A stretch of DNA of 64,000 nt from Escherichia coli (GCF_044324785.1 NZ_CP172127.1); one strand, 5' to 3'. Numbered from the stretch's first letter, positions 12,389 through 60,366 are shown. Translations and numbers: made by a program. Notes: a model not told the origin generated them from the sequence alone.

Positions 12389-12582
12389 TTAATTGCCTTA
12401 TAAATATATAGATAAGAGAGATAATATTTTAAATGAAAAAATGATCCGTCACTATACACATTTTGCTTATAAACAAACCGAAATCATTCACACCCCGAAT
12501 AATTCCTGCGACTTAAAATATAAATCGCAGGAAGCTATTTTAATTACCCGCTCTACCACTGGCGCAGGATATAAACTCTCAC

Positions 12583-14889
12583 CTACATTCCATAACGTTC
12601 AGAAATAGCAGCATGCTTCTCTTCATTCGCCCCGGCTTCTTTGGCAAGACGCCACCAGCACAACGGATGTTCCCAGTCAGCGGTCAATTCGTGCAAGGTC
12701 TTATCGATATCACCTTTAGAAACTGAACGCGGCGCGCTGATAACAAAGTAGAACGCGGGCAGCGGCTGTGCATCTTCTCCCTGCTGGCTGTCCGTTAACG
12801 TATAGTCCTCGTTACTGTTGCTCCAGTAGTACCAGTTTCGTTCACGGAGCGCCTCACGGAAGACATTAAACTGTTCTTCCCCAGGCATGACACCTTCACA
12901 GAACCAGGACTCGCCGTACTCAGTCGGGATAATGGTTTGCAGGCAGGCATAAAGTGGCGTGAAATTCTTCCGTTCTTCCTCATCCTCTGGTTGGGTGTTC
13001 AACATTTCTGCATCGAATACCACAACTTCATCAACATGTTGCGGATAATCGGTCCGGTAAGTTGGCTCAATGATCCTTGCTGTTACCGGCCCAATACGTT
13101 GAGCATAGTAATAGCGGTATTCATAATTTTCCCGGAAGCGAATGTTTAGCAGCCCCCATTTTTCGTCGATAAAACCTTCACCTTCCGTAAGTTCGATTTC
13201 CAGTTCAGCAGCAATAGCACGAACCAAATCCCATTGTTGCAGGATGCTGGCGGTCGCCATGATATCCCACTGGAGATTTCGAATATCTTCTTCACGGCTA
13301 ATCATCAGTTGCTGCAATTGTTGTAAATAATCCAGCTGTCGATCCCAGGCTTCCTGTTTTTGTGCTGCCCAGGAGCACATGCGATAAACGCCAACCCATT
13401 CACGCCCTTTTTCGTTTTGCAGCAACTGTTGCCCAATCGACTCCAGTTCACTCCAGTCTTCCTGTTGGTTGATCACTCGCGCACGGAACCACAAGGCCAT
13501 ATGTAGCAGCCCCGCCTGTTCATACTGCTTCGCCAGGTGCTCAATGGTTTGCAGATCGTCACGGTGGAGCAATAAATCCAACAGATCGAAGCAGAGATTG
13601 TTATCTTCCTGGAGGTGGCTTTCGACGTAGCGTTGCAGAAGTTCAATCGACTCATCAATCGCATTACAGGCATTTAACGCATTGACCAGTTTGCCCAGCA
13701 ATTCCGCATCATCTGGCGCGTTCAGGTAAGCGCGGCGGAATGTTTCGACGTCTTTTTCTGGATCTGGCTGCGTTTCTTCGTCGCTATTTTCAGGTACTTC
13801 TACAACCGGACGAGCAAGCAACTCCGCCTCTTTGGCGGCGATTTTTTCACTCAGTTCGAGAAACTCGCGATCAACCCCCAGTAACGCGCGTAATTTTGGC
13901 ATGTGTCGCTGGGCCAGTTTCATCGCTATTTTGGCAACCCAGACGGATTCACGCTCCAGCGCCAGGGTGATTTGCAGTTTTGCCAGATTAACCACTTTGC
14001 GATGCGCCCCGGCCTGTGAACGTTGCTCCAGCATTTTCTGGATGATGCGCGCCAGTTGCCAGTTGTTTCTTTGTGGATGACGGGGAAGTAACACAGTAAT
14101 GATTTTCAGCCATGACCCCCATGAATGGGGAGTCAGATCTGACCAACGCGGTAATTCCTCCCAGACTTCTTCGTCCTGCCCGCATAACGCCATGATGTAC
14201 AGTTTTTTGAGGTGATTACTAATGCGGTCGCGGCCCCAGTAATCATTGGCTTCTGTCAGCTCATCAATCAGTATGCGTGCTTCATCATAACGCTGAAGTT
14301 CAATCAGAATATCGGCACGAGTATAAAGTAATGCATCAATATCATCTTCCCCGGCTGCTTTAACTGCGTCGATTTGTCGATCCAGATAAGCCAGTGCCTC
14401 CTCTATTCTTTTGGAATCTATCAGTGCACTGGCATATTCAGTGGACAAACACTGAAAACAGCTCCAGGTCGGATCAATCCGCGCGATGGTTTCTTCACAT
14501 ACCGCCATGCGTTCATTCGCCCAGCCAGGTGCATCAATATTTTCGTAGCAGGCGGATAAATCCTGGGTAACGCAGATAGATTGTGGGCAATCTTTTGTCT
14601 CTTCCCGGTGCGCTTTTTCAAACAGCGCCACCACGTCTGGCAGTACTTTTTCGCCTTCTTCGCGGTTAGTGAGACGATGGCGCATTTCCCAATGACCAAT
14701 AAAAATCTCCAGCCACGGATTTTTTGCCACCTGGGTAAGTGCTTTTACTTCAGGTAACAGCGAATCGCACTTTTCCATTTGCAGGTGCATAACGCCTTCC
14801 GAATAATCATCGATAAGTTGCGGAATATACTCCTGCCCGGCATCGCGTAACTCCTTAGTATATTTGTGATACCACTCCCATATATCCAT
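12583..14889 (-). CDS. Large acidic helical-repeat protein of unknown function, operon partner of the GHKL ATPase
   Basis: 768-aa ORF, start 1 bp downstream of the preceding gene's stop (translational coupling); Trp/Glu/Leu-rich, predicted alpha-helical (TPR/HEAT-like by eye); no catalytic motif recognised. Confidence 0.6.
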   Translation of the reverse strand: MDIWEWYHKYTKELRDAGQEYIPQLIDDYSEGVMHLQMEKCDSLLPEVKALTQVAKNPWLEIFIGHWEMRHRLTNREEGEKVLPDVVALFEKAHREETKDCPQSICVTQDLSACYENIDAPGWANERMAVCEETIARIDPTWSCFQCLSTEYASALIDSKRIEEALAYLDRQIDAVKAAGEDDIDALLYTRADILIELQRYDEARILIDELTEANDYWGRDRISNHLKKLYIMALCGQDEEVWEELPRWSDLTPHSWGSWLKIITVLLPRHPQRNNWQLARIIQKMLEQRSQAGAHRKVVNLAKLQITLALERESVWVAKIAMKLAQRHMPKLRALLGVDREFLELSEKIAAKEAELLARPVVEVPENSDEETQPDPEKDVETFRRAYLNAPDDAELLGKLVNALNACNAIDESIELLQRYVESHLQEDNNLCFDLLDLLLHRDDLQTIEHLAKQYEQAGLLHMALWFRARVINQQEDWSELESIGQQLLQNEKGREWVGVYRMCSWAAQKQEAWDRQLDYLQQLQQLMISREEDIRNLQWDIMATASILQQWDLVRAIAAELEIELTEGEGFIDEKWGLLNIRFRENYEYRYYYAQRIGPVTARIIEPTYRTDYPQHVDEVVVFDAEMLNTQPEDEEERKNFTPLYACLQTIIPTEYGESWFCEGVMPGEEQFNVFREALRERNWYYWSNSNEDYTLTDSQQGEDAQPLPAFYFVISAPRSVSKGDIDKTLHELTADWEHPLCWWRLAKEAGANEEKHAAISERYGM

Positions 14890-14890
14890 T

Positions 14891-16726
14891 TTATTTTCCT
14901 TGATTAATTAAGACAGGAATAACCTGAGTAAAATCTTCCAGTGCCTGATGTAAATCCCACTGCTGTTCTTTATTACCGCTGGAGCACAGAATCACTTTCA
15001 GCGATTTTAATAACCGTAATGCTGCCGCTGGCTGTTGATGGTGTTGTAATGCCGTCACCAGTTGCATGACACAGGGGTTATTAAGGTTGATATAGAGACT
15101 TGAAGTTTTAGATTTTTGGATTTGCGAGGTAAATTGCCGCGCCAGCATTAATGCAGCGGTACTGATGCGTTTATCTGCGTCATCCTGTTCGAGAATTTGT
15201 TTTAATTCTGCTTCGCGGTCTGGCGTGACCACGAGCGGTAAAACCGCTGGTTCGAAGCGGGAGATAATTAATTGCTCGCCATCACAGAGATGCTCTTCCA
15301 GATATGCAACCTGCTCTTCGGGTAATTCTGCCAGGCTGAACAACTGCTCATTACCCGTTTGCGTACCGACTTCGATAATCCGGCAGTGATATAACAGCGC
15401 CCAACGACGTAAAAATGGCACCACCGCATAACGATCGCCACGGGCTACGGGCCGTTGCAGAATATGAAACAACATCTCTTCAAAACCGCCGTCGCGGCTT
15501 AACAGAATATGAATACTGTTATTAACGCGTAAATCCTTCGCCAGCAGCGCACCTTTTGACGTTGGCACCTGCAGGCGGTCTTTGAGTAAATCAAACAGAC
15601 GATCATCACACAAGGCCGCACCCAGCAACGCTTCGTTGTGGCGCATTAATACACGCCGCCAGATTTCTGGCTGGTTTTGTGCGAGATCGGACAAACCTGA
15701 AATCAGCGCCTCTTTTAGCGCCTCCTGTACCGCAACCCAGGTTTCATCCCGCTGGAGATCTTCCCGGCTCGCCGTCGGCGTCAGTTTCGATGACTCAATC
15801 ACGCCGCCAATAAATCCGGCCCAGGGCGGTAACAACTCACGCGCTTCATCATCCAGTAACATACCGCGCAAAAACAACGACAGGTTGCGGTTATCGCTGG
15901 TGCCGTAGGTTGCGCCATCCTGAATCCATAAAATCCCGACCGCATCGCTCATCCCCGCAGGTACTACCGGAATGGTGCAAATCGGTTCGAAGGAGGATTC
16001 AAACTGGGCGGCAAAGGCGAGATTTTTACGCTGCACCAGCGCGCGGTGCATGGTTACGCCTTCGGGGGCAACTTCACGCCACGGTGGTTGAAGTTTATTT
16101 ACCGGCTCGCCGGCATCGCCGACATAGACCGGTTCGTGCAGCAATATGCAGTAGCGGGAAAGAACGCGGTTCAGCAAATTGTTACTCGCCAGATGGCTAT
16201 ACTCTTCTTTGAGCGTCAGAATCACCTGCGTTCCCGTTTCCGAGGACTCATACGGCGTAACGGTATATTTTTGCCCGTCAGTAGAGTGGTATTTCCAGCG
16301 CTGATCCGGCGTTTGCCAGGATGTGGTCAACACCGTAACCTCTTTTGCCAGCACAAAGGCCGACAAAAAACCGAGGCCGAACATACCAATTAAACCGGTG
16401 TTGTCATCCTGCTGGCGCAACATTCGGGTATAACCCACGCCCACTGTCGCCAGGAAGCCGTGAATTTCACTTTCTGTCAGTCCCGCACCGGTATCGGTAA
16501 TGGTGATGATGGACTTCGCCACGTCTGCCACCACACGAATCGCGTTATCCTTTGGCGCATCGGGCTGCTCAATCCTGCGGCGAACGATCGCATCATGGCC
16601 GTTCTGCACCAGCTCGCGCACGGCAACCACGGGAGTGGAGTAAAGATGCTTACTAAGCACCTCAATTAAACCGTTTAAATTAACTTCTGTAGAATATGAA
16701 CTGCCAGGTAACTGTAATGTACTCAT
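14891..16726 (-). CDS. Hsp90/MORC-type GHKL ATPase paralog (HtpG-like, not housekeeping htpG)
   Basis: 611-aa ORF with Bergerat-fold motifs in order: ELVQNGHDA (motif I, cf. Hsp90 ELISNASDA), DTGAGLT (motif II, cf. DNGIGMT), GMFGLGFLSAF (G-loop, cf. GQFGVGFYSAF); AT-rich promoter region 16727..17037. Confidence 0.7.
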   Translation of the reverse strand: MSTLQLPGSSYSTEVNLNGLIEVLSKHLYSTPVVAVRELVQNGHDAIVRRRIEQPDAPKDNAIRVVADVAKSIITITDTGAGLTESEIHGFLATVGVGYTRMLRQQDDNTGLIGMFGLGFLSAFVLAKEVTVLTTSWQTPDQRWKYHSTDGQKYTVTPYESSETGTQVILTLKEEYSHLASNNLLNRVLSRYCILLHEPVYVGDAGEPVNKLQPPWREVAPEGVTMHRALVQRKNLAFAAQFESSFEPICTIPVVPAGMSDAVGILWIQDGATYGTSDNRNLSLFLRGMLLDDEARELLPPWAGFIGGVIESSKLTPTASREDLQRDETWVAVQEALKEALISGLSDLAQNQPEIWRRVLMRHNEALLGAALCDDRLFDLLKDRLQVPTSKGALLAKDLRVNNSIHILLSRDGGFEEMLFHILQRPVARGDRYAVVPFLRRWALLYHCRIIEVGTQTGNEQLFSLAELPEEQVAYLEEHLCDGEQLIISRFEPAVLPLVVTPDREAELKQILEQDDADKRISTAALMLARQFTSQIQKSKTSSLYINLNNPCVMQLVTALQHHQQPAAALRLLKSLKVILCSSGNKEQQWDLHQALEDFTQVIPVLINQGK

Positions 16727-17002
16727 TTTTCAATACTCATAATCCATCACCCACTATTGAAAATACATTGCTGTTTTTACAACCGGTGCAAGGTTTGTTA
16801 TTTTCATTCACGCATCGGAAACATTTATTTATTGACGCGATGATTAAAACAAAATGTCTTATATAAATAATGATTAATTCTTAATAGGATTAATGCGACT
16901 GGAGTATATCGATATAAACCGGAGTTAACGAGATAATTTCTTGTGGTGAAATTATTATTTAAATGCTGAATAATATATTGAGGATTATTTAATAGAAAAA
17001 TA

Positions 17003-17036
17003 AAACCGCAATCCAGAATCAGAATTGCGGTATTTC
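17003..17036 (-). terminator. Hairpin terminator downstream of fdhD
   Basis: accgcaatccagaatcagaattgcggt hairpin directly after the fdhD stop, followed by a T-run on the minus strand. Confidence 0.55.
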
Positions 17037-18067: not shown

Positions 18068-21000
18068 ATGCAGGTCAGCAGAAGGCAGTTCTTTAAGATC
18101 TGCGCTGGCGGTATGGCAGGCACCACGGCAGCGGCACTGGGTTTTGCACCCAGCGTAGCACTCGCGGAAACTCGGCAGTATAAACTGCTGCGCACCCGCG
18201 AAACCCGTAATACCTGCACCTATTGTTCCGTAGGCTGTGGGCTGTTGATGTACAGCCTCGGTGACGGAGCAAAAAACGCCAAAGCATCTATCTTCCATAT
18301 CGAAGGCGATCCGGATCACCCGGTCAACCGCGGTGCACTTTGTCCGAAAGGCGCTGGCCTGGTGGATTTCATCCACTCCGAAAGCCGTCTGAAGTTTCCG
18401 GAATACCGTGCGCCAGGTTCTGATAAATGGCAGCAAATCAGTTGGGAAGAGGCGTTTGATCGCATCGCCAAACTGATGAAAGAAGACCGCGATGCTAACT
18501 ACATTGCGCAAAACGCCGAAGGCGTGACTGTTAACCGCTGGCTCTCCACCGGGATGCTGTGTGCTTCCGCGTCGAGTAACGAAACCGGCTATTTAACGCA
18601 AAAATTCTCCCGCGCGCTGGGTATGCTCGCGGTCGACAACCAGGCGCGTGTCTGACACGGACCAACGGTAGCAAGTCTTGCTCCAACATTTGGTCGCGGT
18701 GCGATGACCAACCACTGGGTCGACATCAAGAACGCCAACCTCGTCGTGGTGATGGGCGGTAACGCCGCTGAAGCTCACCCGGTCGGGTTCCGCTGGGCGA
18801 TGGAAGCCAAAATTCACAATGGCGCGAAGCTGATTGTGATCGATCCTCGCTTTACGCGTACGGCTGCGGTGGCTGACTACTATGCCCCTATTCGTTCCGG
18901 TACTGACATTGCTTTCCTGTCAGGCGTATTGCTGTACCTGCTGAACAATGAAAAATTCAACCGCGAATATACCGAAGCCTATACCAACGCCAGCCTTATC
19001 GTGCGTGAGGATTACGGCTTTGAAGATGGCCTGTTCACCGGCTACGACGCGGAAAAACGCAAGTACGATAAATCCTCCTGGACTTACGAACTGGACGAAA
19101 ACGGCTTCGCCAAACGCGATACCACGCTGCAACATCCGCGCTGCGTGTGGAACTTGCTGAAACAGCACGTTTCCCGCTACACGCCAGATGTGGTTGAAAA
19201 CATCTGTGGTACGCCAAAAGACGCGTTCCTGAAAGTCTGCGAATACATCGCCGAAACCAGTGCTCACGATAAAACTGCTTCGTTCCTGTATGCCCTCGGC
19301 TGGACGCAACACTCTGTTGGTGCGCAAAACATTCGTACGATGGCGATGATCCAGTTGCTGCTCGGCAATATGGGGATGGCAGGCGGCGGCGTTAACGCCC
19401 TGCGTGGTCACTCCAATATTCAGGGGCTGACGGACCTGGGGCTACTGTCGCAGAGCCTGCCGGGTTACATGACGCTGCCGAGCGAGAAGCAGACCGATCT
19501 GCAAACCTACCTTACCGCCAACACGCCAAAACCGCTGCTGGAAGGCCAGGTAAACTACTGGGGCAACTACCCGAAATTCTTCGTCTCCATGATGAAGGCC
19601 TTCTTTGGTGATAAAGCGACGGCGGAAAATAGCTGGGGCTTTGACTGGTTGCCGAAGTGGGATAAAGGCTACGACGTCCTGCAATACTTCGAGATGATGA
19701 AAGAAGGCAAGGTCAATGGCTATATCTGCCAGGGCTTTAACCCTGTTGCCTCATTCCCGAACAAAAACAAAGTGATCGGTTGTCTGTCGAAACTGAAGTT
19801 CCTCGTCACCATCGACCCGCTGAACACTGAAACCTCTAACTTCTGGCAGAACCACGGTGAGCTGAACGAAGTTGACTCGTCGAAGATCCAGACCGAAGTG
19901 TTCCGTCTGCCATCGACCTGCTTCGCGGAAGAGAACGGTTCTATCGTTAACTCCGGTCGCTGGTTGCAGTGGCACTGGAAAGGTGCGGACGCCCCGGGGA
20001 TTGCGCTGACAGATGGCGAGATCCTCTCCGGTATCTTCCTGCGCTTGCGCAAGATGTATGCCGAACAGGGTGGCGCAAACCCGGATCAGGTGCTGAACAT
20101 GACCTGGAACTACGCCATTCCGCATGAGCCGAAGTCGGAAGAAGTAGCGATGGAGAGCAACGGTAAGGCGCTGGCCGATATTACCGATCCGGCAACCGGT
20201 GCGGTTATCGTCAAGAAAGGCCAACAACTTAGCTCGTTCGCCCAACTGCGCGATGACGGTACGACCTCCTGTGGCTGCTGGATTTTCGCCGGTAGCTGGA
20301 CGCCAGAAGGTAACCAGATGGCGCGCCGTGATAACGCCGATCCGTCTGGCCTCGGTAACACGCTGGGCTGGGCATGGGCATGGCCGCTTAACCGCCGCAT
20401 TCTGTATAACCGCGCCTCCGCAGATCCGCAGGGTAACCCGTGGGATCCGAAGCGTCAGTTGCTGAAATGGGACGGCACCAAATGGACCGGCTGGGATATT
20501 CCGGACTACAGCGCAGCGCCTCCGGGCAGTGGCGTTGGGCCGTTTATCATGCAGCAGGAAGGCATGGGGCGTCTGTTTGCCCTCGATAAGATGGCGGAAG
20601 GTCCGTTCCCGGAACACTACGAGCCGTTTGAAACGCCGCTGGGAACTAACCCGCTGCATCCAAACGTTATCTCGAACCCGGCTGCACGTATCTTTAAAGA
20701 CGACGCCGAAGCGTTGGGTAAAGCCGATAAGTTCCCGTATGTCGGAACCACCTATCGTCTGACCGAGCACTTCCACTACTGGACCAAACACGCGCTGTTG
20801 AACGCGATTTTGCAACCAGAGCAGTTTGTGGAAATCGGGGAGTCGCTGGCGAATAAACTTGGCATTGCCCAGGGCGATACCGTGAAAGTCTCCTCCAACC
20901 GTGGCTATATCAAAGCCAAAGCGGTGGTGACCAAACGTATTCGCACGCTGAAAGCGAACGGCAAAGATATCGATACCATCGGTATTCCGATTCACTGGGG

Positions 21001-35487: not shown

Positions 35488-36390
35488 ATGCAAATCACCA
35501 ACATGCATTGCAGTGGACAGACCGTTTCACTTGCCGCGGGGGATTATCACGCGACTATCGTGACGGTTGGTGCTGGTCTGGCTGAATTAACCTTTCAGGG
35601 TTGTCATTTAGTCATCCCGCACAAACCCGAAGAGATGCCGCTGGCGCATCTGGGTAAAGTGCTTATTCCGTGGCCGAACCGGATCGCCAACGGCTGTTAC
35701 CGCTATCAGGGGCAGGACTATCAGTTACCCATTAATGAACATAGTTCAAAAGCCGCTATTCACGGGCTGCTTGCCTGGCGTGACTGGCAAATTAGCGAAT
35801 TAACCGCCACCAGCGTTACCCTGACAGCTTTTCTGCCGCCCAGTTACGGCTATCCGTTTATGCTGGCTTCACAAGTTGTTTATTCGCTCAATGCTCGCAC
35901 GGGCCTTTCCGTTGAGATCGCAAGCCAGAATATTGGTACTGTGACCGCACCTTATGGTGTGGGTATTCATCCTTATTTAACCTGTGACTTAACGCCTGTT
36001 GATGACTATCTTTTCCAGCTTCCGGCAGAACAGGTTTATGCCGTCGATGAGCACGCAAATCCGACAACGCTTCACCACGTTGATGAGCTGAATTTAAATT
36101 TCACGCGGGCGACAAAAATAGCCGCGACAAAAATCGACCACACCTTTAAAACCGCTAATGATCTGTGGGAAATGACCATTACCCATCCACAGCATTTGCT
36201 TTCGGTGAGCCTCTGTTCCGATCAACCCTGGGTGCAGGTTTATAGCGGTGAAAAATTACAGCGTCAGGGACTGGCAGTTGAACCTATGAGTTGCCCGCCT
36301 GATGCGTTTAATTCAGGTATCGACTTATTATTACTGGAACCAGGAAAAACGCACCGCCTGTTTTTTAATATTCACGGGCAGCACAATTAA
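35488..36390 (+). CDS. yihR: Aldose-1-epimerase-family protein (sulfoquinovose mutarotase candidate)
   Basis: 300-aa ORF at the expected position in the yih cluster. Confidence 0.8.
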   Translation: MQITNMHCSGQTVSLAAGDYHATIVTVGAGLAELTFQGCHLVIPHKPEEMPLAHLGKVLIPWPNRIANGCYRYQGQDYQLPINEHSSKAAIHGLLAWRDWQISELTATSVTLTAFLPPSYGYPFMLASQVVYSLNARTGLSVEIASQNIGTVTAPYGVGIHPYLTCDLTPVDDYLFQLPAEQVYAVDEHANPTTLHHVDELNLNFTRATKIAATKIDHTFKTANDLWEMTITHPQHLLSVSLCSDQPWVQVYSGEKLQRQGLAVEPMSCPPDAFNSGIDLLLLEPGKTHRLFFNIHGQHN

Positions 36391-36450
36391 TTTTATTAAG
36401 AAAAGAACGAGATCATTGTTTAGGGTTGTATTTACACAACAGGAAAGATT

Positions 36451-37326
36451 ATGGACTTTTTTACATTATTTACGCCGGACGGGGCCATGGTGGAAACAAG
36501 CGTGGTATGTATCGTTATCGCGTTAATGTTTCTTTATACCTTTGTGGGGATATGCGCGGGATTTGGCGGTGGTTTAACCACTATGCCGCTCGTCACGTTA
36601 ATGCTCCCCGTAAAAATGGCAACTCCGCTCTCGGTGATTGTCGGCACCGCAACCGCCTTGTACGCCACCTGGCTGTCACGTAAAGAAACGGATTGGCGAT
36701 CGGCAATGGTACTGATTATTTTCTCGTTTCTGGGAATACCCGTCGGTTTATATGCGCTGTCGTATTTACCCGACCATTTTATGAAAGTGGGCTTAGGCGG
36801 ATTCCTTATCCTTTACTCGTTTTACAGCATGTTTATTCCTCGCCTGCCGATTTATGACCGTAACTGGATCGCCGCACCTATCGGCGCAGTAGCTGGTGCA
36901 TTAGGTGCGGCGTTCTCAACCAACGGACCGCCGATGGTTATCTACGGTATGCTGCGTAACTTAGGCCCGGCGGCATTTCGCGGCACTTTGAACGCTTTCT
37001 TCACCGCAAACAACATCGCGGTGATCGGCGGGCTGGCAACCAGCGGAATTTTGACTGTCTCTATCTTTAAACTGGTGTTGTTTTGTATTCCCACCATGAT
37101 CCTCGGTTCACTGGTTGGACAATATGTGCATAAACGCATTTCGGTCAAAGTGTTCCGTGTGATGGTCTTTTTATTGCTGATTGCCTCCGGTTCTATGTTG
37201 ATAAAAGGCGCGCTGGGAATTCCCGCCGCTGCCGCACTTCTGCCTCCGTTTACCTTGTTAGTTATACTGCAACTGGCATTCGGTAAAAAAGTGGCGGCAA
37301 TCCGCCGGGCTGAAGAAAGTAAATAA
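36451..37326 (+). CDS. TauE/SafE-family (DUF81) anion exporter
   Basis: 291-aa ORF, about 8 TM segments in two halves, each with a Gly-rich motif (ICAGFGGGLTTMP and GAVAGALGAAFSTNGPPMVIYG) typical of TauE/SafE sulfite/sulfonate exporters; lies between yihR and yihQ. Confidence 0.7.
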   Translation: MDFFTLFTPDGAMVETSVVCIVIALMFLYTFVGICAGFGGGLTTMPLVTLMLPVKMATPLSVIVGTATALYATWLSRKETDWRSAMVLIIFSFLGIPVGLYALSYLPDHFMKVGLGGFLILYSFYSMFIPRLPIYDRNWIAAPIGAVAGALGAAFSTNGPPMVIYGMLRNLGPAAFRGTLNAFFTANNIAVIGGLATSGILTVSIFKLVLFCIPTMILGSLVGQYVHKRISVKVFRVMVFLLLIASGSMLIKGALGIPAAAALLPPFTLLVILQLAFGKKVAAIRRAEESK

Positions 37327-37431
37327 TCATTATGCGGGTTTTAATTTATACCCGCACACATTCTTTAATTAATGAAACCTGTAATAACAGGATGGCATGA
37401 AATATTAGCTTTATATCTATGGAGATTATTT

Positions 37432-40899: not shown

Positions 40900-42202
40900 A
40901 TAATAAACAACGCCCTGCGGGGCGTTATAAGGAGTGATTATGTCTGACCATAATCCACTGACATTAAGACTGAATCTGCGGGAAAAAATCGCCTATGGCA
41001 TGGGCGACGTCGGTTCGAATTTAATGCTTAGCATCGGCACTCTGTATCTCCTCAAATTTTATACCGATGAATTAGGGATGCCTGCTTACTATGGCGGGAT
41101 TATCTTTCTGGTAGCGAAGTTTTTTACCGCGTTTACCGATATGCTCACCGGATTTTTACTCGACTCGCGGAAAAATATTGGGCCTAAAGGCAAATTTCGT
41201 CCCTTTATTTTATATGCAGCGGTTCCGGCGGCGTTAATTGCAACGCTCCAGTTTATCGCCACCACTTTTAGTTTGCCGGTTAAAACGACGATTGCCACCG
41301 CGCTGTTTATGATGTTTGGACTTTCATACAGTCTGATGAACTGCTCGTATGGCGCGATGATCCCGGCAATTACCAAAAACCCCAATGAGCGCGCGCAGCT
41401 TGCGGCTTACCGCCAGGGTGGTGCAACCATAGGGCTATTGATTTGTACCGTGGCGTTTATTCCGTTGCAGTCGCTTTTTTCTGACTCCACCGTCGGTTAT
41501 GCCTGTGCGGCACTTATGTTCTCCATTGGCGGCTTTATTTTTATGATGCTGTGCTACAGAGGCGTCAAAGAGCATTATGTGGACACAACGCCAACCGGAC
41601 ATAAAGCCAGTATTCTCAAATCATTTTGCGCGATATTTCGGAATCCGCCATTGCTGGTTTTGTGCATTGCTAACCTGTGTACCCTGGCGGCATTTAATAT
41701 CAAACTGGCGATTCAGGTCTATTACACCCAGTATGTGCTGAATGATATTAACTTATTGTCGTGGATGGGATTCTTCAGTATGGGATGCATCCTCATCGGC
41801 GTATTGCTGGTGCCATTAAGCGTAAAATGTTTTGGTAAAAAACAGGTTTATTTAGCTGGCATGGTGCTGTGGGCGGTGGGGGATATCCTGAATTATTTCT
41901 GGGGAAGTAACTCTTTCACTTTCGTCATGTTCTCTTGTATCGCCTTTTTTGGCACGGCCTTTGTAAACAGCCTGAACTGGGCACTGGTGCCAGATACCGT
42001 AGATTACGGTGAATGGAAAACCGGTATTCGTGCCGAAGGTTCTGTTTATACCGGTTATACCTTCTTTCGTAAAATTTCTGCCGCACTTGCTGGCTTCTTG
42101 CCAGGCATTATGCTGACGCAAATCGGTTATATTCCCAACATCGCGCAGGTGATGCTGCCAACTTACTGATTTAGTGTATGATGGTGTTTTTGAGGTGCTC
42201 CA

Positions 42203-42478
42203 GTGGCTTCTGTTTCTATCAGCTGTCCCTCCTGTTCAGCTACTGACGGGGTGGTGCGTAACGGCAAAAGCACCGCCGGACATCAGCGCTATCTCTGCTC
42301 TCACTGCCGTAAAACATGGCAACTGCAGTTCACTTACACCGCTTCTCAACCCGGTACGCACCAGAAAATCATTGATATGGCCATGAATGGCGTTGGATGC
42401 CGGGCAACTGCCCGCATTATGGGCGTTGGCCTCAACACGATTTTACGTCACTTAAAAAACTCAGGCCGCAGTCGGTAA
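42203..42478 (+). CDS. insA: IS1 protein InsA
   Basis: 91-aa [46 protein letters not shown]... Confidence 0.95.
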
Positions 42479-42900
42479 CCTCGCGCATACAGCCGGGCAG
42501 TGACGTCATCGTCTGCGCGGAAATGGACGAACAGTGGGGCTATGTCGGGGCTAAATCGCGCCAGCGCTGGCTGTTTTACGCGTATGACAGTCTCCGGAAG
42601 ACGGTTGTTGCGCACGTATTCGGTGAACGCACTATGGCGACGCTGGGGCGTCTTATGAGCCTGCTGTCACCCTTTGACGTGGTGATATGGATGACGGATG
42701 GCTGGCCGCTGTATGAATCCCGCCTGAAGGGAAAGCTGCACGTAATCAGCAAGCGATATACGCAGCGAATTGAGCGGCATAACCTGAATCTGAGGCAGCA
42801 CCTGGCACGGCTGGGACGGAAGTCGCTGTCGTTTTCAAAATCGGTGGAGCTGCATGACAAAGTCATCGGGCATTATCTGAACATAAAACACTATCAATAA
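42397..42900 (+). CDS. insB: IS1 transposase InsB frame (expressed as InsAB' fusion by -1 frameshift)
   Basis: 167-aa ORF overlapping the insA 3' end in the -1 frame. Confidence 0.9.
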
Positions 42901-43186
42901 GTTGGAGTCATTACCCATCGCGCAAAGTGATGCGACATTACAGGGTTTGCGTCAGCTCATTTTTATCTGGCCTTGTGCACTGGCAATTATTGCTGCATTG
43001 ACGATGGGATTCTTTTACACACTCAATGAAAAACGGTTTGCGTTGATTATTGAGGAAATCAACCAACGCAAAAATAAAGAGATGGCGACAGAAGAAAAAA
43101 CGGCTTCCGTAACGTTATAAATGTCAATAGCCGCTATTTCCATCCTGGTGGGTGGCGGCCTCCCTACGTTTAAAAATGGACTTATT

Positions 43187-49074: not shown

Positions 49075-49225
49075 AACTTTGCCTCAGGCATTAGAAATAG
49101 CGCGTTATTGTACACGGATTAATCGCACTACAAAACAGGATCACAAACATCCTCCGCAAACAAGTATTGCAGAGTCCCTTTGTGATCGCTTTCACGGAGC
49201 ATAAAAAGGGTTATCCAAAGGTCAT

Positions 49226-49363
49226 TGCACCAATATGGTGCTTAATGTTTCCATTGAAGCACTATATTGGTGCAACATTCACATCATGGTGCAGCCCTTT
49301 TGCACGATGTTAAGCATGATAACGCCTTTTAGGGGCAATTTAAAAGTTGGCACAGTTTTCGCT
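49226..49363 (+). promoter_or_regulatory. glnA control region: NtrC-binding palindromes and sigma-54 promoter
   Basis: NtrC-type sites tgcaccaatatggtgct (49226..49242) and gcactatattggtgcaa (49259..49275); sigma-54 -24/-12 element TGGCACagttTTCGCT at 49348..49363. Confidence 0.8.
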
Positions 49364-49446: not shown

Positions 49447-50856
49447 ATGTCCGCTGAACACGTACTGACGATGCTGAACGAGCACGAAGTGAAGTTTGTT
49501 GATTTGCGCTTCACCGATACCAAAGGTAAAGAACAGCACGTCACTATCCCTGCTCATCAGGTGAATGCTGAATTCTTCGAAGAAGGCAAAATGTTTGACG
49601 GCTCCTCGATTGGCGGCTGGAAAGGCATTAACGAATCCGACATGGTGCTGATGCCAGACGCATCCACCGCAGTGATTGACCCGTTCTTCGCCGATTCTAC
49701 CCTGATTATCCGTTGCGACATCCTTGAACCTGGCACCCTGCAAGGCTATGACCGTGACCCGCGCTCCATCGCGAAGCGCGCCGAAGATTACCTGCGTTCT
49801 ACTGGCATTGCCGACACCGTACTGTTCGGGCCAGAACCTGAATTCTTCCTGTTCGATGACATCCGTTTCGGATCTTCTATCTCCGGTTCCCACGTTGCTA
49901 TCGACGATATCGAAGGCGCATGGAACTCCTCCACCCAATACGAAGGTGGTAACAAAGGTCACCGTCCGGCAGTGAAAGGCGGTTACTTCCCGGTTCCGCC
50001 GGTAGACTCTGCTCAGGATATTCGTTCTGAAATGTGTCTGGTGATGGAACAGATGGGTCTGGTGGTTGAAGCCCATCACCACGAAGTAGCGACTGCTGGT
50101 CAGAACGAAGTGGCTACCCGCTTCAATACCATGACCAAAAAAGCTGACGAAATTCAGATCTACAAATACGTTGTGCACAACGTAGCGCACCGCTTCGGTA
50201 AAACCGCGACCTTTATGCCAAAACCGATGTTCGGTGATAACGGCTCCGGTATGCACTGCCACATGTCACTGTCTAAAAACGGCGTCAACCTGTTCGCGGG
50301 TGACAAATATGCAGGTCTGTCTGAACAGGCGCTGTACTACATTGGCGGCGTAATCAAACACGCTAAAGCGATTAACGCCCTGGCAAACCCGACCACCAAC
50401 TCTTACAAGCGTCTGGTGCCGGGCTACGAAGCACCGGTAATGCTGGCTTACTCTGCGCGTAACCGTTCTGCGTCTATCCGTATTCCGGTGGTTTCTTCTC
50501 CGAAAGCACGTCGTATCGAAGTACGTTTCCCGGATCCGGCGGCTAACCCGTACCTGTGCTTTGCTGCCCTGCTGATGGCCGGTCTTGATGGTATCAAGAA
50601 CAAGATCCATCCGGGCGAAGCCATGGACAAAAACCTGTATGACCTGCCGCCAGAAGAAGCGAAAGAGATCCCACAAGTTGCAGGCTCTCTGGAAGAAGCA
50701 CTGAACGAGCTGGATCTGGACCGCGAGTTCCTGAAAGCCGGTGGCGTGTTCACGGATGAAGCGATCGATGCGTACATCGCTCTGCGTCGCGAAGAAGATG
50801 ACCGCGTACGTATGACTCCGCATCCGGTAGAGTTTGAGCTGTACTACAGCGTCTAA
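49447..50856 (+). CDS. glnA: Glutamine synthetase
   Basis: 469-aa [41 protein letters not shown]... Confidence 0.97.
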
Positions 50857-50916
50857 TAGTTGAAGTTGTACTACCCGGCGCAACAACGCCGGGATTTAGT
50901 TGCCGTGGAAACTTTC

Positions 50917-50942
50917 AGCCCATCTCTGCATGGGCTTTTTTC
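50917..50942 (+). terminator. Rho-independent terminator after glnA
   Basis: Hairpin agccca-tctctgca-tgggct followed by tttttt; a second hairpin cccggcgcaacaacgccggg lies just upstream (about 50873..50893). Confidence 0.7.
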
Positions 50943-51029
50943 TCCGTCAATTCTCTGATGCTTCGCGCTTTTTATCCGTAAAAAGCTATAATGCACTAAA
51001 ATGGTGCAACCTGTTCAGGAGACTGCTTT

Positions 51030-55474: not shown

Positions 55475-55984
55475 TTAGTTGCCCCGCAGCAGACGCATCA
55501 TGTCTTCTTGCTTCTCGTCTTCTTCCTCTTCTTCGTCATCGTCATAAGAGAGGCCGAGTTTCTGCATCAACTCATCAATACGATCCAGTTTGGCATCCAC
55601 CCAGGATTGCTCTTCGGCACTCAGGGTTTCGCCTGCTTCCAGACGTTCCAGCAGCGCATCCAGACGCTCATCCGTTTCCAGTAATTCCAACTCCGCCTGC
55701 GGTGAAAGCATAGGTTTCTCACTCTTCGGTTTGTGCTGTTTGGTGACTTTTTCAGTCACGCCCAATGGAATAGGGGTTTTACTGCCAATACGTGGATCTT
55801 TCGGTGCGTTCTGGCCTTTGCTGCCTGACGTGGTGTTACCGCCCGCTGCGCGGCTGCCCGGCGCATGACCTCGACGTTTTTTCTGACGCTTACGGTCACG
55901 AGCTTCCTGATCCAGCTCCTCGCGTGTTTTTCGACGCGCTTTTGCATGACCTTTGCTGCGTGAGTTTGAAGATGATGGTTTCAT
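55475..55984 (-). CDS. yihI: Der GTPase-activating protein YihI
   Basis: ORF 55475..56047; start set at [23 protein letters not shown] (169 aa); basic N-terminus, acidic C-terminus. Confidence 0.88.
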
Positions 55985-56049
55985 AATGGTTCGTCTTTTA
56001 GCCGTTTTATTCAGTATAGATTTGCGGCGGAATCTAACAGAAAGCAAGC

Positions 56050-56296
56050 AAAGAAAAAAGGCGACAGATTACTCTGTCGCCTTTTTTCCTGACTCATAAC
56101 CCTTAACGGGTCTTACAATCCTTGCAGGCCGCCAACACACCCTGTTTTTCCATTAGCCGGAACAATCCGTGTTGATTCCATTTCCGTTTAATTACGTCTC
56201 CGGACGTTTGTCTTCCTGACAATCCTCTGTCTTCGCCTCCTGGCGCTCCTGACCCTCATCCTGAGTCATTGTTCCTGTTAGCGTCCTCGCTCTATG
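56050..56296 (-). ncRNA. csrC: CsrC small RNA (CsrA-sequestering)
   Basis: Minus-strand sequence starts ATAGAGCGAGGACGCTAACAGGAACAATGACTCAGGATGAGGGTCAGGAGCGCCAGGAGGCG... with many GGA motifs and ends in terminator ggcgacagagtaatctgtcgcc + T-run; lies in the yihI-engB intergenic region; ends approximate. Confidence 0.85.
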
Positions 56297-56565
56297 GGTG
56301 CTACTTTACGCCTTTGCTTTAAACAAACAATCAACCGCCATCAGTATTTGCACATTTTCAGAGTTTTATATAAAAGCAATTAACTGATTTATATAGCTTA
56401 TTTGACATGCATCGCAGAATTTTCTCTGCTATTTCGCATAAAGACTATCGGCAATGTCTCACAAAGCGTATGGCTTTTACTTACAACGCTCACGCCGAAA
56501 AATCCGCCTTTTATTATGGTTCAGGTATAATCGCCGCAAAGCTTTGACTGACGGAGACGACCGCT

Positions 56566-57198
56566 TTGACTAATTTGAATTATCAACAGACGCATTTTGT
56601 GATGAGTGCGCCTGATATTCGCCACTTACCTTCCGATACCGGAATTGAAGTGGCTTTTGCAGGCCGTTCCAACGCAGGTAAATCCAGCGCGCTGAACACG
56701 CTGACTAACCAGAAAAGCCTGGCTCGTACCTCAAAAACCCCAGGGCGCACCCAGCTTATCAACCTGTTTGAAGTGGCTGACGGCAAGCGTCTGGTTGACC
56801 TGCCCGGCTATGGCTACGCGGAAGTCCCGGAAGAGATGAAGCGCAAATGGCAACGCGCGCTCGGCGAATACCTCGAAAAACGTCAGAGCCTGCAAGGTCT
56901 GGTGGTGCTAATGGATATTCGCCATCCGCTGAAAGATTTGGATCAACAGATGATTGAGTGGGCGGTAGACAGCAATATCGCCGTGCTGGTGCTACTGACC
57001 AAAGCGGACAAACTGGCAAGCGGCGCACGTAAAGCGCAATTGAATATGGTGCGTGAAGCGGTGCTGGCGTTTAACGGTGATGTGCAGGTTGAAACGTTCT
57101 CTTCACTGAAGAAACAAGGCGTGGACAAGCTGCGGCAGAAACTGGATACCTGGTTTAACGAGATGCAGCCTGTAGAAGAAACGCAGGACGGCGAATAA
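56566..57198 (+). CDS. engB: Ribosome-biogenesis GTP-binding protein EngB/YsxC
   Basis: 210-aa ORF from a TTG start; [46 protein letters not shown]... Confidence 0.92.
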
Positions 57199-57218
57199 TT
57201 TTCTTGCCTTAATGCTTG

Positions 57219-57300
57219 TGCCGGATGTGGCGTATCCGGCCCGTAAATTCAATAGATTACACTTCTACCGTTGGCCTGATAAACATGGCGCATCAGGCAT
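57219..57300. repeat. REP elements between engB and spf
   Basis: gccggatgtggcgtatccggc and ggcctgataaacatggcgcatcaggc palindromic units. Confidence 0.75.
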
Positions 57301-57323
57301 TACGGATCTTTTCTTTCGCCCAA

Positions 57324-57432
57324 TAAAAAACGCCCCAGTCATTACTGACTGGGGCGGCTAAAATATTCAGCCAAATCCGATTACGTGAAGTAAAAGGTCT
57401 GAAAGATAGAACATCTTACCTCTGTACCCTAC
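57324..57432 (-). ncRNA. spf: Spot 42 small RNA
   Basis: Minus strand reads GTAGGGTACAGAGGTAAGATGTTCTATCTTTCAGACCTTTTACTTCACGTAATCGGATTTGGCTGAATATTTTAGCCGCCCCAGTCAGTAATGACTGGGGCGTTTTTTA (109 nt), including its intrinsic terminator. Confidence 0.95.
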
Positions 57433-57579
57433 GCGACTAACTTTACTCTTTTTTGTTCAGTTCAGAAAGCACTTTTTGTAATTTTTTTTCAGTTGTTGCA
57501 TAGGAATTTCTAATAGCCATCACAAAACGTGACAGCTTATGTTGCTTACTTACGAAAAAAGGGCATGTTCAGGTGAATC

Positions 57580-60366
57580 TTAGTGCGCCTGATCCCAGTT
57601 TTCGCCACTCCCCACTTCCACCAGCAGCGGCACATCCAGACGGGTACAGTTTTCCATCAGTTGATGAATCTGCTTCGCGACGGCATCGACATCATCTTTA
57701 TGAACTTCAAATACCAGTTCATCGTGTACCTGCATGATCATACGCACACGCGGTTGCTCAGCCTGTAGCCACGCATCAACGGCAATCATCGCCCGTTTGA
57801 TAATGTCGGCGGCGGTTCCCTGCATTGGCGCGTTAATGGCTGCACGTTCAGCCGCTGCACGACGAGCCCCATTGCTGGATTTGATATCCGGCAGATACAG
57901 ACGGCGTCCGTCCAGCGTTTCAACGTAGCCCTGCTCTTTCGCCTGAGCACGGGTGCGTTCCATATACTCCAGCACGCCAGGGTAGCGTTCGAAGTAAAGG
58001 TCCATGTACTTCTGCGCTTCTTTACGTGGAATGTTCAATTGCCGCGCCAGACCGAAAGCACTCATGCCATAAATCAGACCAAAGTTGATCGCTTTCGCGC
58101 TACGGCGTTGCTCGCTGGTTACGGTTTCCAGTGGCAAACCAAACACTTCTGCCGCCGTAGCCCGGTGGATATCTTTTCCTTCCGCGAATGCGGTCAGCAA
58201 GCCTTTGTCACGCGAGAGATGCGCCATAATGCGCAGTTCAATCTGCGAGTAGTCCGCTGAGACAATCACATAATCCTCTGGCGCAATAAACGCCTGGCGG
58301 ATACGACGACCTTCTTCGTTACGCACCGGAATGTTTTGCAGGTTAGGATCGGTTGACGATAAACGTCCCGTTGCAGTTACTGCCTGGTGATAAGAGGTAT
58401 GCACACGCCCGGTTTTCGGGTTGATCATCAGCGGCAGCTTGTCGGTGTAAGTCGATTTCAGCTTCGCCAGACCACGATACTCCAGAATCACTTTTGGCAA
58501 CGGATAGTCCAGCGCCAGTTCTTCCAGTACCTCTTCCGACGTTGACGGCGCGCCACCCGGCGTTTTCTTCAGCGGTTTAATTCCCTGTTTTTCAAACAGA
58601 ATGGTTTGCAACTGCTTGGTGGAGGAAAGGTTAAATTCTTCACCTGCAATTTCATGCGCTTTCTTTTCCAGCTCAGCCAGACGAAGAGTGAGCTCTTCAG
58701 AATGATTGTGCAGCACTTTCGGATCGATCTTCACACCGTTACGTTCAATGCGTGAAAGCACCGGCACTAGCGGCATTTCGATATTCTCGAAGACGTTCAA
58801 CGGCCCTTTGTGTTTTTGCAGATCCGGCCACATTTTCAGATGCAACTGCAAGGTGACATCTGCATCTTCGGCGGCGTAACGTCCGGCCTCTTCGAGAGCA
58901 ATCTGGTTAAAGGTCAGTTGATTTTTGCCTTTACCCGCAATCTCTTCAAAAGTGATGGTTTTGTGCTTCAACCAACGTTCCGCGAGGCTGTCCATATCGT
59001 GACGCCCGGCAACGCTATTGAGAATGTAGGACTCCAGCATGGTATCAAACGCAATCCCACGCAGCTCAATGCCGTAATTCGCCAGAATACCGCGATCGTA
59101 TTTCAGGTTTTGCCCAACCTTCAGCGCCTTTTCATCTTCCAGCAGCGGTTTTAGCAACTCGAGTGCACGCTCGCGAGAGATTTGATCGGGCGCATCAAGA
59201 TAATCATGAGCAACCGGAATATATGCCGCTACGCCTGGCTCGATAGCAAAAGAAAGCCCGACCAGGTTAGCAGAGATGTTATCAAGGCTGTCGGTTTCGG
59301 TATCAAATGCAAATACCGGCGCTTTTTCCAGCTTCGCAATCCACGCTTTCAGTGTTTCTTCATCAAGGATGGTGACGTAGTTGTCATAAGAAATCACCGT
59401 TGCCGTCACTTCTGGTGCTTCGTCTGCAACACTGGTTTCCTGTGGCTTCGCGGCTGGTTTTGCCCCTTTGGCCTGTAACCATTTGCCCGCTTCGACATCA
59501 GCAGTCCAGCGTTTGAACTCATACTTTTTGAACAGCCCCAACAACTCTTCCGCTGCCGGTTGCTGCACTTCCAGTTGTTCACAGGTCAGCTCCAGTTCAA
59601 CGTCGGTTTTAATCGTCGCCAGCTGGTATGAGAGATAAGCAACTTCTTTGTTTTGCTCGAGCTTCGCTGCCATTGTTTTCGCGCCACGGAAGCTCAACCC
59701 AGCAATTTTTTCTGGCTCGGCATACAGCGTATCCAGGCCGCCAAGACCTTGCAGCAATGCCTGCGCGGTTTTTTCACCGACGCCCGGTACGCCAGGAATG
59801 TTATCAGAGGAGTCACCCATCAGCGCCAGGAAATCGATGATCAGTTCTGGCGGCACGCCGTACTTATTCACCACCTCTTCCGGTCCGAGGATGGTATTCG
59901 TCATGGTATTGATAAGCGTAATATTTGGCGTCACCAGCTGCGCCATATCTTTATCGCCAGTGCTGATCAGCACCGGACGCCCGGCTTTTTCGGCTTCGCG
60001 CGCCAGAGTACCGATAACGTCGTCCGCTTCTACGCCAGAAACCGCCAGCAGCGGCAGTCCCATCGCTTTAACCATCGCGTGCAAGGGTTCGATTTGTGCA
60101 CGCAGATCGTCCGGCATTGGTGGGCGATGTGATTTGTAATGTTCAAACAGTTCATCACGAAAGGTTTTTCCCTTGGCGTCAAAGACCACCGCTGCATGCG
60201 TCGGTTTATATTGCATGATCAGACTGCGCAGCATGTTGAGGACACCATACATCGCACCGGTCGGCTCGCCTGCGCTGTTAGTCAGCGGGGGAAACGCGTG
60301 ATATGCGCGATAAAGATAAGATGAACCATCTACAAGGATAAGTGGATTTTGGGGGATCTGAACCAT
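57580..60366 (-). CDS. polA: DNA polymerase I
   Basis: 928-aa [49 protein letters not shown]... Confidence 0.97.

Follow-up and report, generated by a model that had tools for sequence, protein, structure and literature searches.

The closest described counterparts of the two small RNAs considered here are CsrC and Spot 42 of Escherichia coli K-12. CsrC (b4457) of K-12 is attributed to Weilbacher et al. 2003, as cited in PMC7652899, which also summarizes the sequestration of CsrA by this RNA and its CsrD-dependent decay. Its larger paralogue, CsrB, carries 22 GGA motifs and, like CsrC, is a multi-site CsrA decoy that depends on UvrY for activation through a distal inverted repeat and is turned over by way of CsrD and RNase E (PMC4682653, PMC7652899). 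Unlike CsrB, CsrC has a different locus and sequence and is shorter, with 14 GGA motifs; in addition, its UvrY repeat is less symmetric and IHF is not needed (PMC4682653). The UvrY (BarA-UvrY) site of csrC, TGTGAGACATTGCCGATA, together with a TGTAAG half-site, has been defined by ChIP-exo and DNase footprinting (PMC4682653). For Spot 42 (spf, b3864), a CRP operator sequence is quoted in PMC3295665 from Polayes et al. 1988. The same RNA encodes the small protein SpfP (b4837), whose translation and binding to CRP have been demonstrated and which blocks activation of galETKM and other operons, with His10 being critical. The base-pairing and coding activities of Spot 42 are separable and both real, and repression of GalK persists in Spot 42-STOP constructs (PMC8916003).

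We analyzed a 64,000-nucleotide stretch of E. coli DNA (NZ_CP172127.1; hereafter, the window), in which a preliminary description had recognized the CsrC and Spot 42 genes on the minus strand, flanking engB. When the whole window was scanned with Rfam at gathering thresholds, four matches were obtained, two of them in the csrC/spf region. Both families scored far above threshold in this covariance-model check (4.5-fold for CsrC and 1.5-fold for Spot 42), and both matches lay on the minus strand at the places described. Together with the K-12 annotation and the identity of the ORF between them as yihA/engB, these matches bear out the proposed arrangement. Boundaries were set by alignment with the annotated locus of K-12 MG1655, and the two ends of the region as first described, 56050 and 57432, coincide to the base with the ends annotated there for csrC (3') and spf (5'). 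The features of the locus, in window coordinates, are as follows:

55984, minus strand: start codon of yihI (ORF list, RefSeq annotation)
56295..56050, minus strand: csrC, encoding the CsrC sRNA, 246 nt as in the K-12 annotation, +1 at 56295 (Rfam, K-12 b4457)
56566..57198, plus strand: yihA/engB, 210 aa (ORF list, RefSeq annotation of near-identical genomes)
57220-57240, no strand assigned: hairpin GCCGGAT..ATCCGGC (inverted-repeat search)
57274-57298, no strand assigned: hairpin GCCTGAT..ATCAGGC (inverted-repeat search)
57432..57324, minus strand: spf, encoding the 109-nt Spot 42 RNA, +1 at 57432 (Rfam, exact string match, K-12 b3864)
57414..57367, minus strand: spfP, a 15-codon ORF (MFYLSDLLLHVIGFG) followed by a UGA stop (translation, K-12 b4837)
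57580..60366, minus strand: polA (ORF list, RefSeq annotation)

The product of yihA/engB is a ribosome-biogenesis GTPase, and the direction of its transcription diverges from that of csrC and converges on that of spf. The csrC gene has yihA on one side and yihI on the other, and spf lies downstream of polA and converges on yihA, which are the positions expected of the CsrC family and of Spot 42, respectively; hemN is also among the neighbors of the region. In the gap where yihA and spf converge with their 3' ends, the inverted-repeat search detected the two hairpins at 57220..57298, which we take to be REP-like from their similarity to the E. coli REP consensus and which are conserved with K-12 except for two substitutions. 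Compared to K-12 b4457, b3864, and b4837, the window shows 1, 0, and 0 differences, respectively. Of 5426 complete E. coli genomes, 5425 contain the region (best identity, 99.7%). Both csrC and spf are present in 5424 of the 5426, nearly all at an identity of at least 99%. Nothing in the sequence contradicts the canonical reading, and we are as good as certain that this is the polA-spf-yihA-csrC-yihI locus canonical for E. coli, reversed in the window and holding two independent functional sRNA genes. Both copies are intact and reference-like, so that the original finding is correct, already known, and ordinary; the two RNAs are textbook E. coli regulators, and biologically nothing new is added.

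The match to the CsrC family (RF00084; 56295..56042, minus strand) scored 277.9 bits against a gathering threshold of 61 (E 1.2e-87) and spanned positions 1-255 of the 255-position model. CsrC was also the best match of the region within the CsrB/RsmB clan (CL00106) in a low-threshold Rfam search; other matches from that search (Thr_leader, miRNA families, and others) were sub-threshold terminator look-alikes and were dismissed as chance, and a sub-threshold CsrC match on the plus strand appeared because the terminator is symmetric. The locus, the 246-nt length, the terminator, the UvrY repeat and half-site, and the GGA layout are all shared with K-12 CsrC, to which the RNA is identical at 245 of 246 bases (99.6%). 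The single substitution is a U in place of the K-12 A at RNA position 144 (56152), immediately 5' of a GGA motif. This alignment column is variable among genera (G/A/U/C), and an exact 65-mer carrying U144 was found in 2514 of 5422 complete E. coli genomes (~46%). The idea of an unusual CsrC allele was therefore rejected: U144 is a common allele. Across E. coli as a whole, csrC is at least 99% identical in 5359 of 5424 genomes.

The repeated GGA motifs reported earlier for CsrC proved to be 14 in number, compared to 8.6 ± 2.0 in dinucleotide shuffles. No 254-nt segment on either strand of the 64-kb window has a higher count, the mean being 3.2. In the Rfam consensus structure, 11 of the 14 motifs are fully unpaired; among 23 genus-level sequences, every one of the first 13 recurs in 16-23 and the 14th in 10. 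The minimum free energy fold of the RNA has a z-score of -6.98 relative to shuffles. RNAalifold recovered only about half of the helices from the CsrC alignment, and the Rfam consensus structure was therefore used on the same alignment instead. With this consensus projected onto the structure-blind MAFFT alignment of the 23 genus-level sequences, 85% of cells in the helices were paired, compared to 39-49% when the partners were slid, and compensatory changes were seen at 14 pairs.

The terminator originally noted for CsrC was likewise recovered, and a terminator scan placed a G+C-rich stem-loop followed by a run of T at the end of each RNA gene:

56090..56051, minus strand: csrC intrinsic terminator, a near-palindrome, A6-GGCGACAGAG-UAAU-CUGUCGCC-U6
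57356..57331, minus strand: spf intrinsic terminator, CGCCCCAGUCA-GUAA-UGACUGGGGCG plus U6

The csrC terminator forms a 16-bp helix in the Rfam consensus, with 98.6% pairing and four compensatory pairs among the 23 genus-level sequences. For the spf terminator, compensatory changes were found in 8 of 10 pairs among 113 sequences.

Spot 42 had been called a 109-nt RNA by direct identity, and an exact match indeed runs from 57432 to 57324; the K-12 RefSeq annotation gives spf as 111 nt, extending to 57322 (57432..57322). The family match (RF00021; 57442..57324, minus strand) scored 122.8 bits against a gathering threshold of 80 (E 3.6e-24) and covered positions 1-115 of the 115-position model. 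Spot 42 and ~130 bp upstream are 100% identical to K-12, and the comparison with K-12 spf and spfP, taking in the RNA, the ORF, the CRP site, the upstream sequence, and the position between polA and yihA, detected no difference. In E. coli, spf is at least 99% identical in 5423 of 5424 genomes. The RNA folds into a three-hairpin structure ending in the intrinsic terminator (minimum free energy z-score of -5.08 relative to shuffles). Among 113 distinct sequences, 99.6% of helix cells were paired, compared to 39-52% with partners slid, and nine pairs showed compensatory changes, eight of which belong to the terminator; no variation occurs in the 5' half and almost none in helices 1-2, so that these parts are uninformative on structure.

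Upstream of the two genes, the following elements were located:

56308..56303, minus strand: candidate csrC -10 hexamer TAAAGT, -13..-8 (read from the sequence)
56463..56446, minus strand: UvrY inverted repeat, 18 nt and imperfect, TGTGAGACATTGCCGATA, -168..-151 (exact match to the published site)
56485..56480, minus strand: UvrY half-site TGTAAG, 16 bp upstream of the repeat (exact match to the published site)
57445..57440, minus strand: -10-like hexamer TAAAGT of spf, -13..-8 (read from the sequence)
57527..57506, minus strand: putative cAMP-CRP operator of spf, TTTTGTGATGGCTATTAGAAAT, 22 nt, -95..-74 (exact match to the published site)

The UvrY repeat with its half-site gave a single exact match in the window, where none was expected, and a UvrY-like site is found at about -166..-149 in most CsrC-bearing genera. 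One difference from K-12 lies ~87 bp upstream of csrC, between the UvrY repeat and the -10 hexamer. A scan of 55900..57650 for consensus sigma-70 promoters at a threshold of 9 of 12 positions returned no sites, so that the promoters of csrC and spf would be non-canonical, and their placement follows from K-12 identity, position, and conservation across genera. In the case of csrC, GTAAAG(T) is kept at the -10 position in nearly all of 22 CsrC loci from other genera, which is consistent with TAAAGT at 56303..56308 being a promoter element; the hexamer at 57440..57445 is likewise a putative -10 element of spf. That TAAAGT occupies exactly -13..-8 in both csrC and spf was noted as a side observation and may be a coincidence. 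The published spf CRP operator also had a single exact match in the window. A generic CRP consensus (TGTGA-N6-TCACA, at most two mismatches) yielded 22 sites in the window compared to 26 expected, which is not above chance; we accepted the spf site because it matches the published operator exactly, the site itself being weak against the consensus.

Binding of CsrA, Hfq, and CRP, and the regulation and turnover of the two RNAs, are suggested here by the literature on identical sequences. On this basis, the GGA motifs of CsrC, held in short hairpin loops and single-stranded linkers, would bind CsrA dimers and so titrate CsrA off its mRNA targets. Phosphorylated UvrY of the BarA-UvrY system, acting on the inverted repeat ~160 bp upstream, would activate csrC, and in the presence of glucose, which dephosphorylates EIIA-Glc, the RNA would undergo CsrD-dependent decay by RNase E and PNPase. 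As for spf, cAMP-CRP is predicted to repress it from the -95..-74 site, so that Spot 42 would be made when glucose is available and cAMP-CRP is low. With Hfq, Spot 42 would then base-pair with galK and other mRNAs for the use of secondary carbon sources, whose genes are located outside the window, and repress them. The transcript may double as the mRNA for the 15-aa SpfP, which would bind CRP and block its activation of some promoters, an action expected to reinforce the same feed-forward loop as Spot 42 itself.

We also surveyed the distribution of both RNAs in other species. Scanning for a 25-nt core of Spot 42, with one genome per species, produced 120 loci, distributed over Enterobacterales, Vibrionales, Aeromonadales, and two genera of Alteromonadales. 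Synteny of polA-spf-yihA, an arrangement already reported (PMC3295665), was seen in most of the 120, and Rfam identified Spot 42 in all 26 loci tested. For CsrC, a single-sequence nhmmer search of the 120 loci missed or barely detected the Erwiniaceae copies, and Rfam was therefore used. CsrC scored strongly in the yihA-yihI interval of Enterobacteriaceae, among them Salmonella, Citrobacter, Klebsiella, Enterobacter, Kosakonia, and Cedecea. Among 12 loci with weak nhmmer matches, Rfam reported CsrC in four, two of them borderline; the borderline scores in some Erwiniaceae were 61.1 and 66.2 bits (gathering threshold, 61). No CsrC match was reported in any of 14 loci from Yersiniaceae, Pectobacteriaceae, Hafniaceae, Morganellaceae, Vibrionales, Aeromonadales, and two Pantoea; by genus, CsrC was not found at threshold in the loci tested from Serratia, Rahnella, Chimaeribacter, Pectobacterium, Brenneria, Edwardsiella, Photorhabdus, Morganella, Plesiomonas, Vibrio, Photobacterium, and Aeromonas. 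CsrC between yihA and yihI is thus confined to Enterobacteriaceae, with borderline cases in Erwiniaceae. In Pectobacterium and Brenneria, a separate element, the Rfam family Fwd6_3p_UTR of soft-rot Enterobacteriaceae, was observed directly upstream of spf, in the polA 3' region:

L072 6588-6703, no strand assigned: Fwd6_3p_UTR (Rfam)
L100 10220-10335, no strand assigned: Fwd6_3p_UTR (Rfam)

The polA-spf spacer of that lineage therefore holds another conserved RNA element.

On the other side of csrC, the 65-nt spacer that separates it from yihI (55985-56049) is nearly invariant in 23 Enterobacteriaceae sequences, a degree of conservation that much of CsrC itself does not reach, and it contains one motif of particular constancy:

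56018..56013, minus strand: TATACT in the csrC-yihI spacer (invariant in the 23-sequence alignment, flanking bases nearly so)

This TATACT is probably the -10 element of a yihI promoter, and the presence of such a promoter in the spacer would also explain why the Rfam CsrC model continues 8 nt past the annotated 3' end of the RNA. Read-through from csrC as the sole source of yihI transcription was judged unlikely, given the invariant TATACT in the spacer. In 20 of 22 other genera, csrC and yihI lie 57-69 nt apart. In Pectobacterium, Brenneria, Lonsdalea, and similar genera, yihA and yihI are separated by only ~200-290 nt, with no CsrC between them. A further-reaching reading of the locus takes csrC for a module specific to its lineage (Enterobacteriaceae, borderline in Erwiniaceae) that came to lie between the divergent yihA and yihI genes, at a constant distance of ~64 nt upstream of yihI, and that arose from the yihI leader/promoter or is still transcriptionally coupled to it, for example by terminator read-through or promoter occlusion. 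If true, such coupling would tie the Csr system to the flanking genes for the ribosome-assembly GTPases, Der/YihI and YihA. We consider this improbable, and retain the reading of two independent sRNA genes in a canonical locus.

The preliminary description had further held that no six-frame ORF explains these intergenic regions, and this statement did not stand: spfP is intact inside Spot 42 (57414..57367), and the ORF list has four more ORFs, 42-49 aa long, that overlap the intergenic sequence (55953..56099, 56402..56530, 56407..56547, and 57212..57361). Since it carries spfP, Spot 42 is not purely non-coding. The Shine-Dalgarno sequence, AUG, 15 codons, UGA, and His10 are all in place and identical to K-12 b4837. 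In other species, with residues 1-6 of SpfP fixed by the search pattern, 114 of 118 loci, one per species, retain a frame of 15 codons, and all variants of 15 or 13 residues (116 of 118 loci) have His10. Such persistence would be expected if the Spot 42 locus were mainly a tiny mRNA for SpfP, with the conservation of the RNA reflecting coding constraint only. Against this, conservation extends beyond the ORF, with the 5' 18 nt invariant and hairpin 3, past the stop codon, kept by compensatory change, and the pairing activity is real and separable from the coding activity (PMC8916003). Conservation of the SpfP frame is, for its part, inseparable from conservation of the RNA itself. We regard a role mainly as an mRNA as very unlikely, and the coding evidence fits within the picture of a dual-function RNA instead of competing with it.

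Protein-coding readings of csrC itself have an origin in genome annotation. PGAP places a pseudo 'hypothetical protein', frameshifted and with an internal stop, over csrC (window ~56102-56268, minus strand; RefSeq record L001, 2203-2369), and a 'hypothetical protein' lies under the csrC match in every sampled record. Taken at face value, this would make the csrC region a decayed protein-coding gene; alternatively, one of the four short ORFs listed above would be the real feature. The pseudo-CDS, however, requires both a frameshift and an internal stop, whereas the same DNA fits an RNA covariance model at E 1e-87, keeps its helices by compensatory changes, and has a terminator at its end; what is conserved in it is the GGA triplets, not a reading frame. 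K-12 curators, moreover, list csrC as an ncRNA and annotate none of the four short ORFs as a gene. A protein-coding reading can hardly be credited; we rejected the pseudo-CDS as an annotation artifact and regard the four short ORFs as mechanical. In the sampled RefSeq E. coli records, spf is without a feature in most, and spfP ('small protein SpfP') is annotated in only some. Pipelines that rely on PGAP annotation in RefSeq will thus miss or mislabel csrC, spf, and spfP.

That csrC and spf might be recognizable but no longer expressed relics in this strain, as the lack of a consensus promoter in the promoter scan of the region could suggest, is scarcely conceivable given promoter regions identical to K-12 from the transcription start sites to beyond the CRP site and UvrY repeat (except for the one substitution ~87 bp upstream of csrC), two intact terminators, and a near-invariance over 5424 genomes that indicates purifying selection.

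Several observations were made elsewhere in the 64-kb window. The glnA-bipA intergenic region contains an Rfam match to the ES222 sRNA (49156-49263, minus strand; 133 bits compared to a gathering threshold of 62), within which lie the palindrome GCACCAUAUUGGUGC, which we take to resemble an NtrC site, and a CRP-like site at 49181-49196. The ES222 model may partly capture enhancer/promoter DNA of glnA. The region of the GlnZ sRNA in the glnA 3' UTR (50690-50960, plus strand), in which Rfam reported no family, is a short variant compared to K-12: ~48 nt take the place of ~160 nt that in K-12 include a REP-like element. The stretch TTTAGTTGCCGTGGAAACTTT and the terminator are kept.

Other segments differ from K-12 in gene content. 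Between yiiG and fdhD, 12577-17036 is absent from K-12 at that position and constitutes a two-gene accessory cassette with two minus-strand ORFs; the adjoining K-12 frvRXB genes are missing. In the yih (sulfoquinovose) cluster, ~1 kb (36382-37377) is without a K-12 match, and its 291-aa ORF (36451..37326, plus strand) had no match in NCBIfam or PADLOC. An IS1 insertion relative to K-12 (42148-42915) lies near the ompL/yihO end of the same cluster. A 637-aa ORF (25270-27183, minus strand), for which no Pfam, NCBIfam, or PADLOC match was obtained, falls in a ~2-kb segment absent from K-12 (24973-27022). The ORFs of the cassette and of the insertion are:

12583..14889, minus strand: ORF of 768 aa, with TPR_19 as its only match
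14891..16726, minus strand: ORF of 611 aa, HSP90-family/HATPase_c_3 (NCBIfam NF010683 at 284.7 bits, below the cutoff of 455; otherwise only a weak PADLOC TmtA match)
42397..42900, no strand assigned: IS1 transposase ORF (NCBIfam IS1 family, 143.7 bits)

Finally, a SECIS_3 element was detected at 18650-18708 on the plus strand (84.3 bits compared to a gathering threshold of 63), where the selenocysteine codon of fdoG (formate dehydrogenase O) calls for one.
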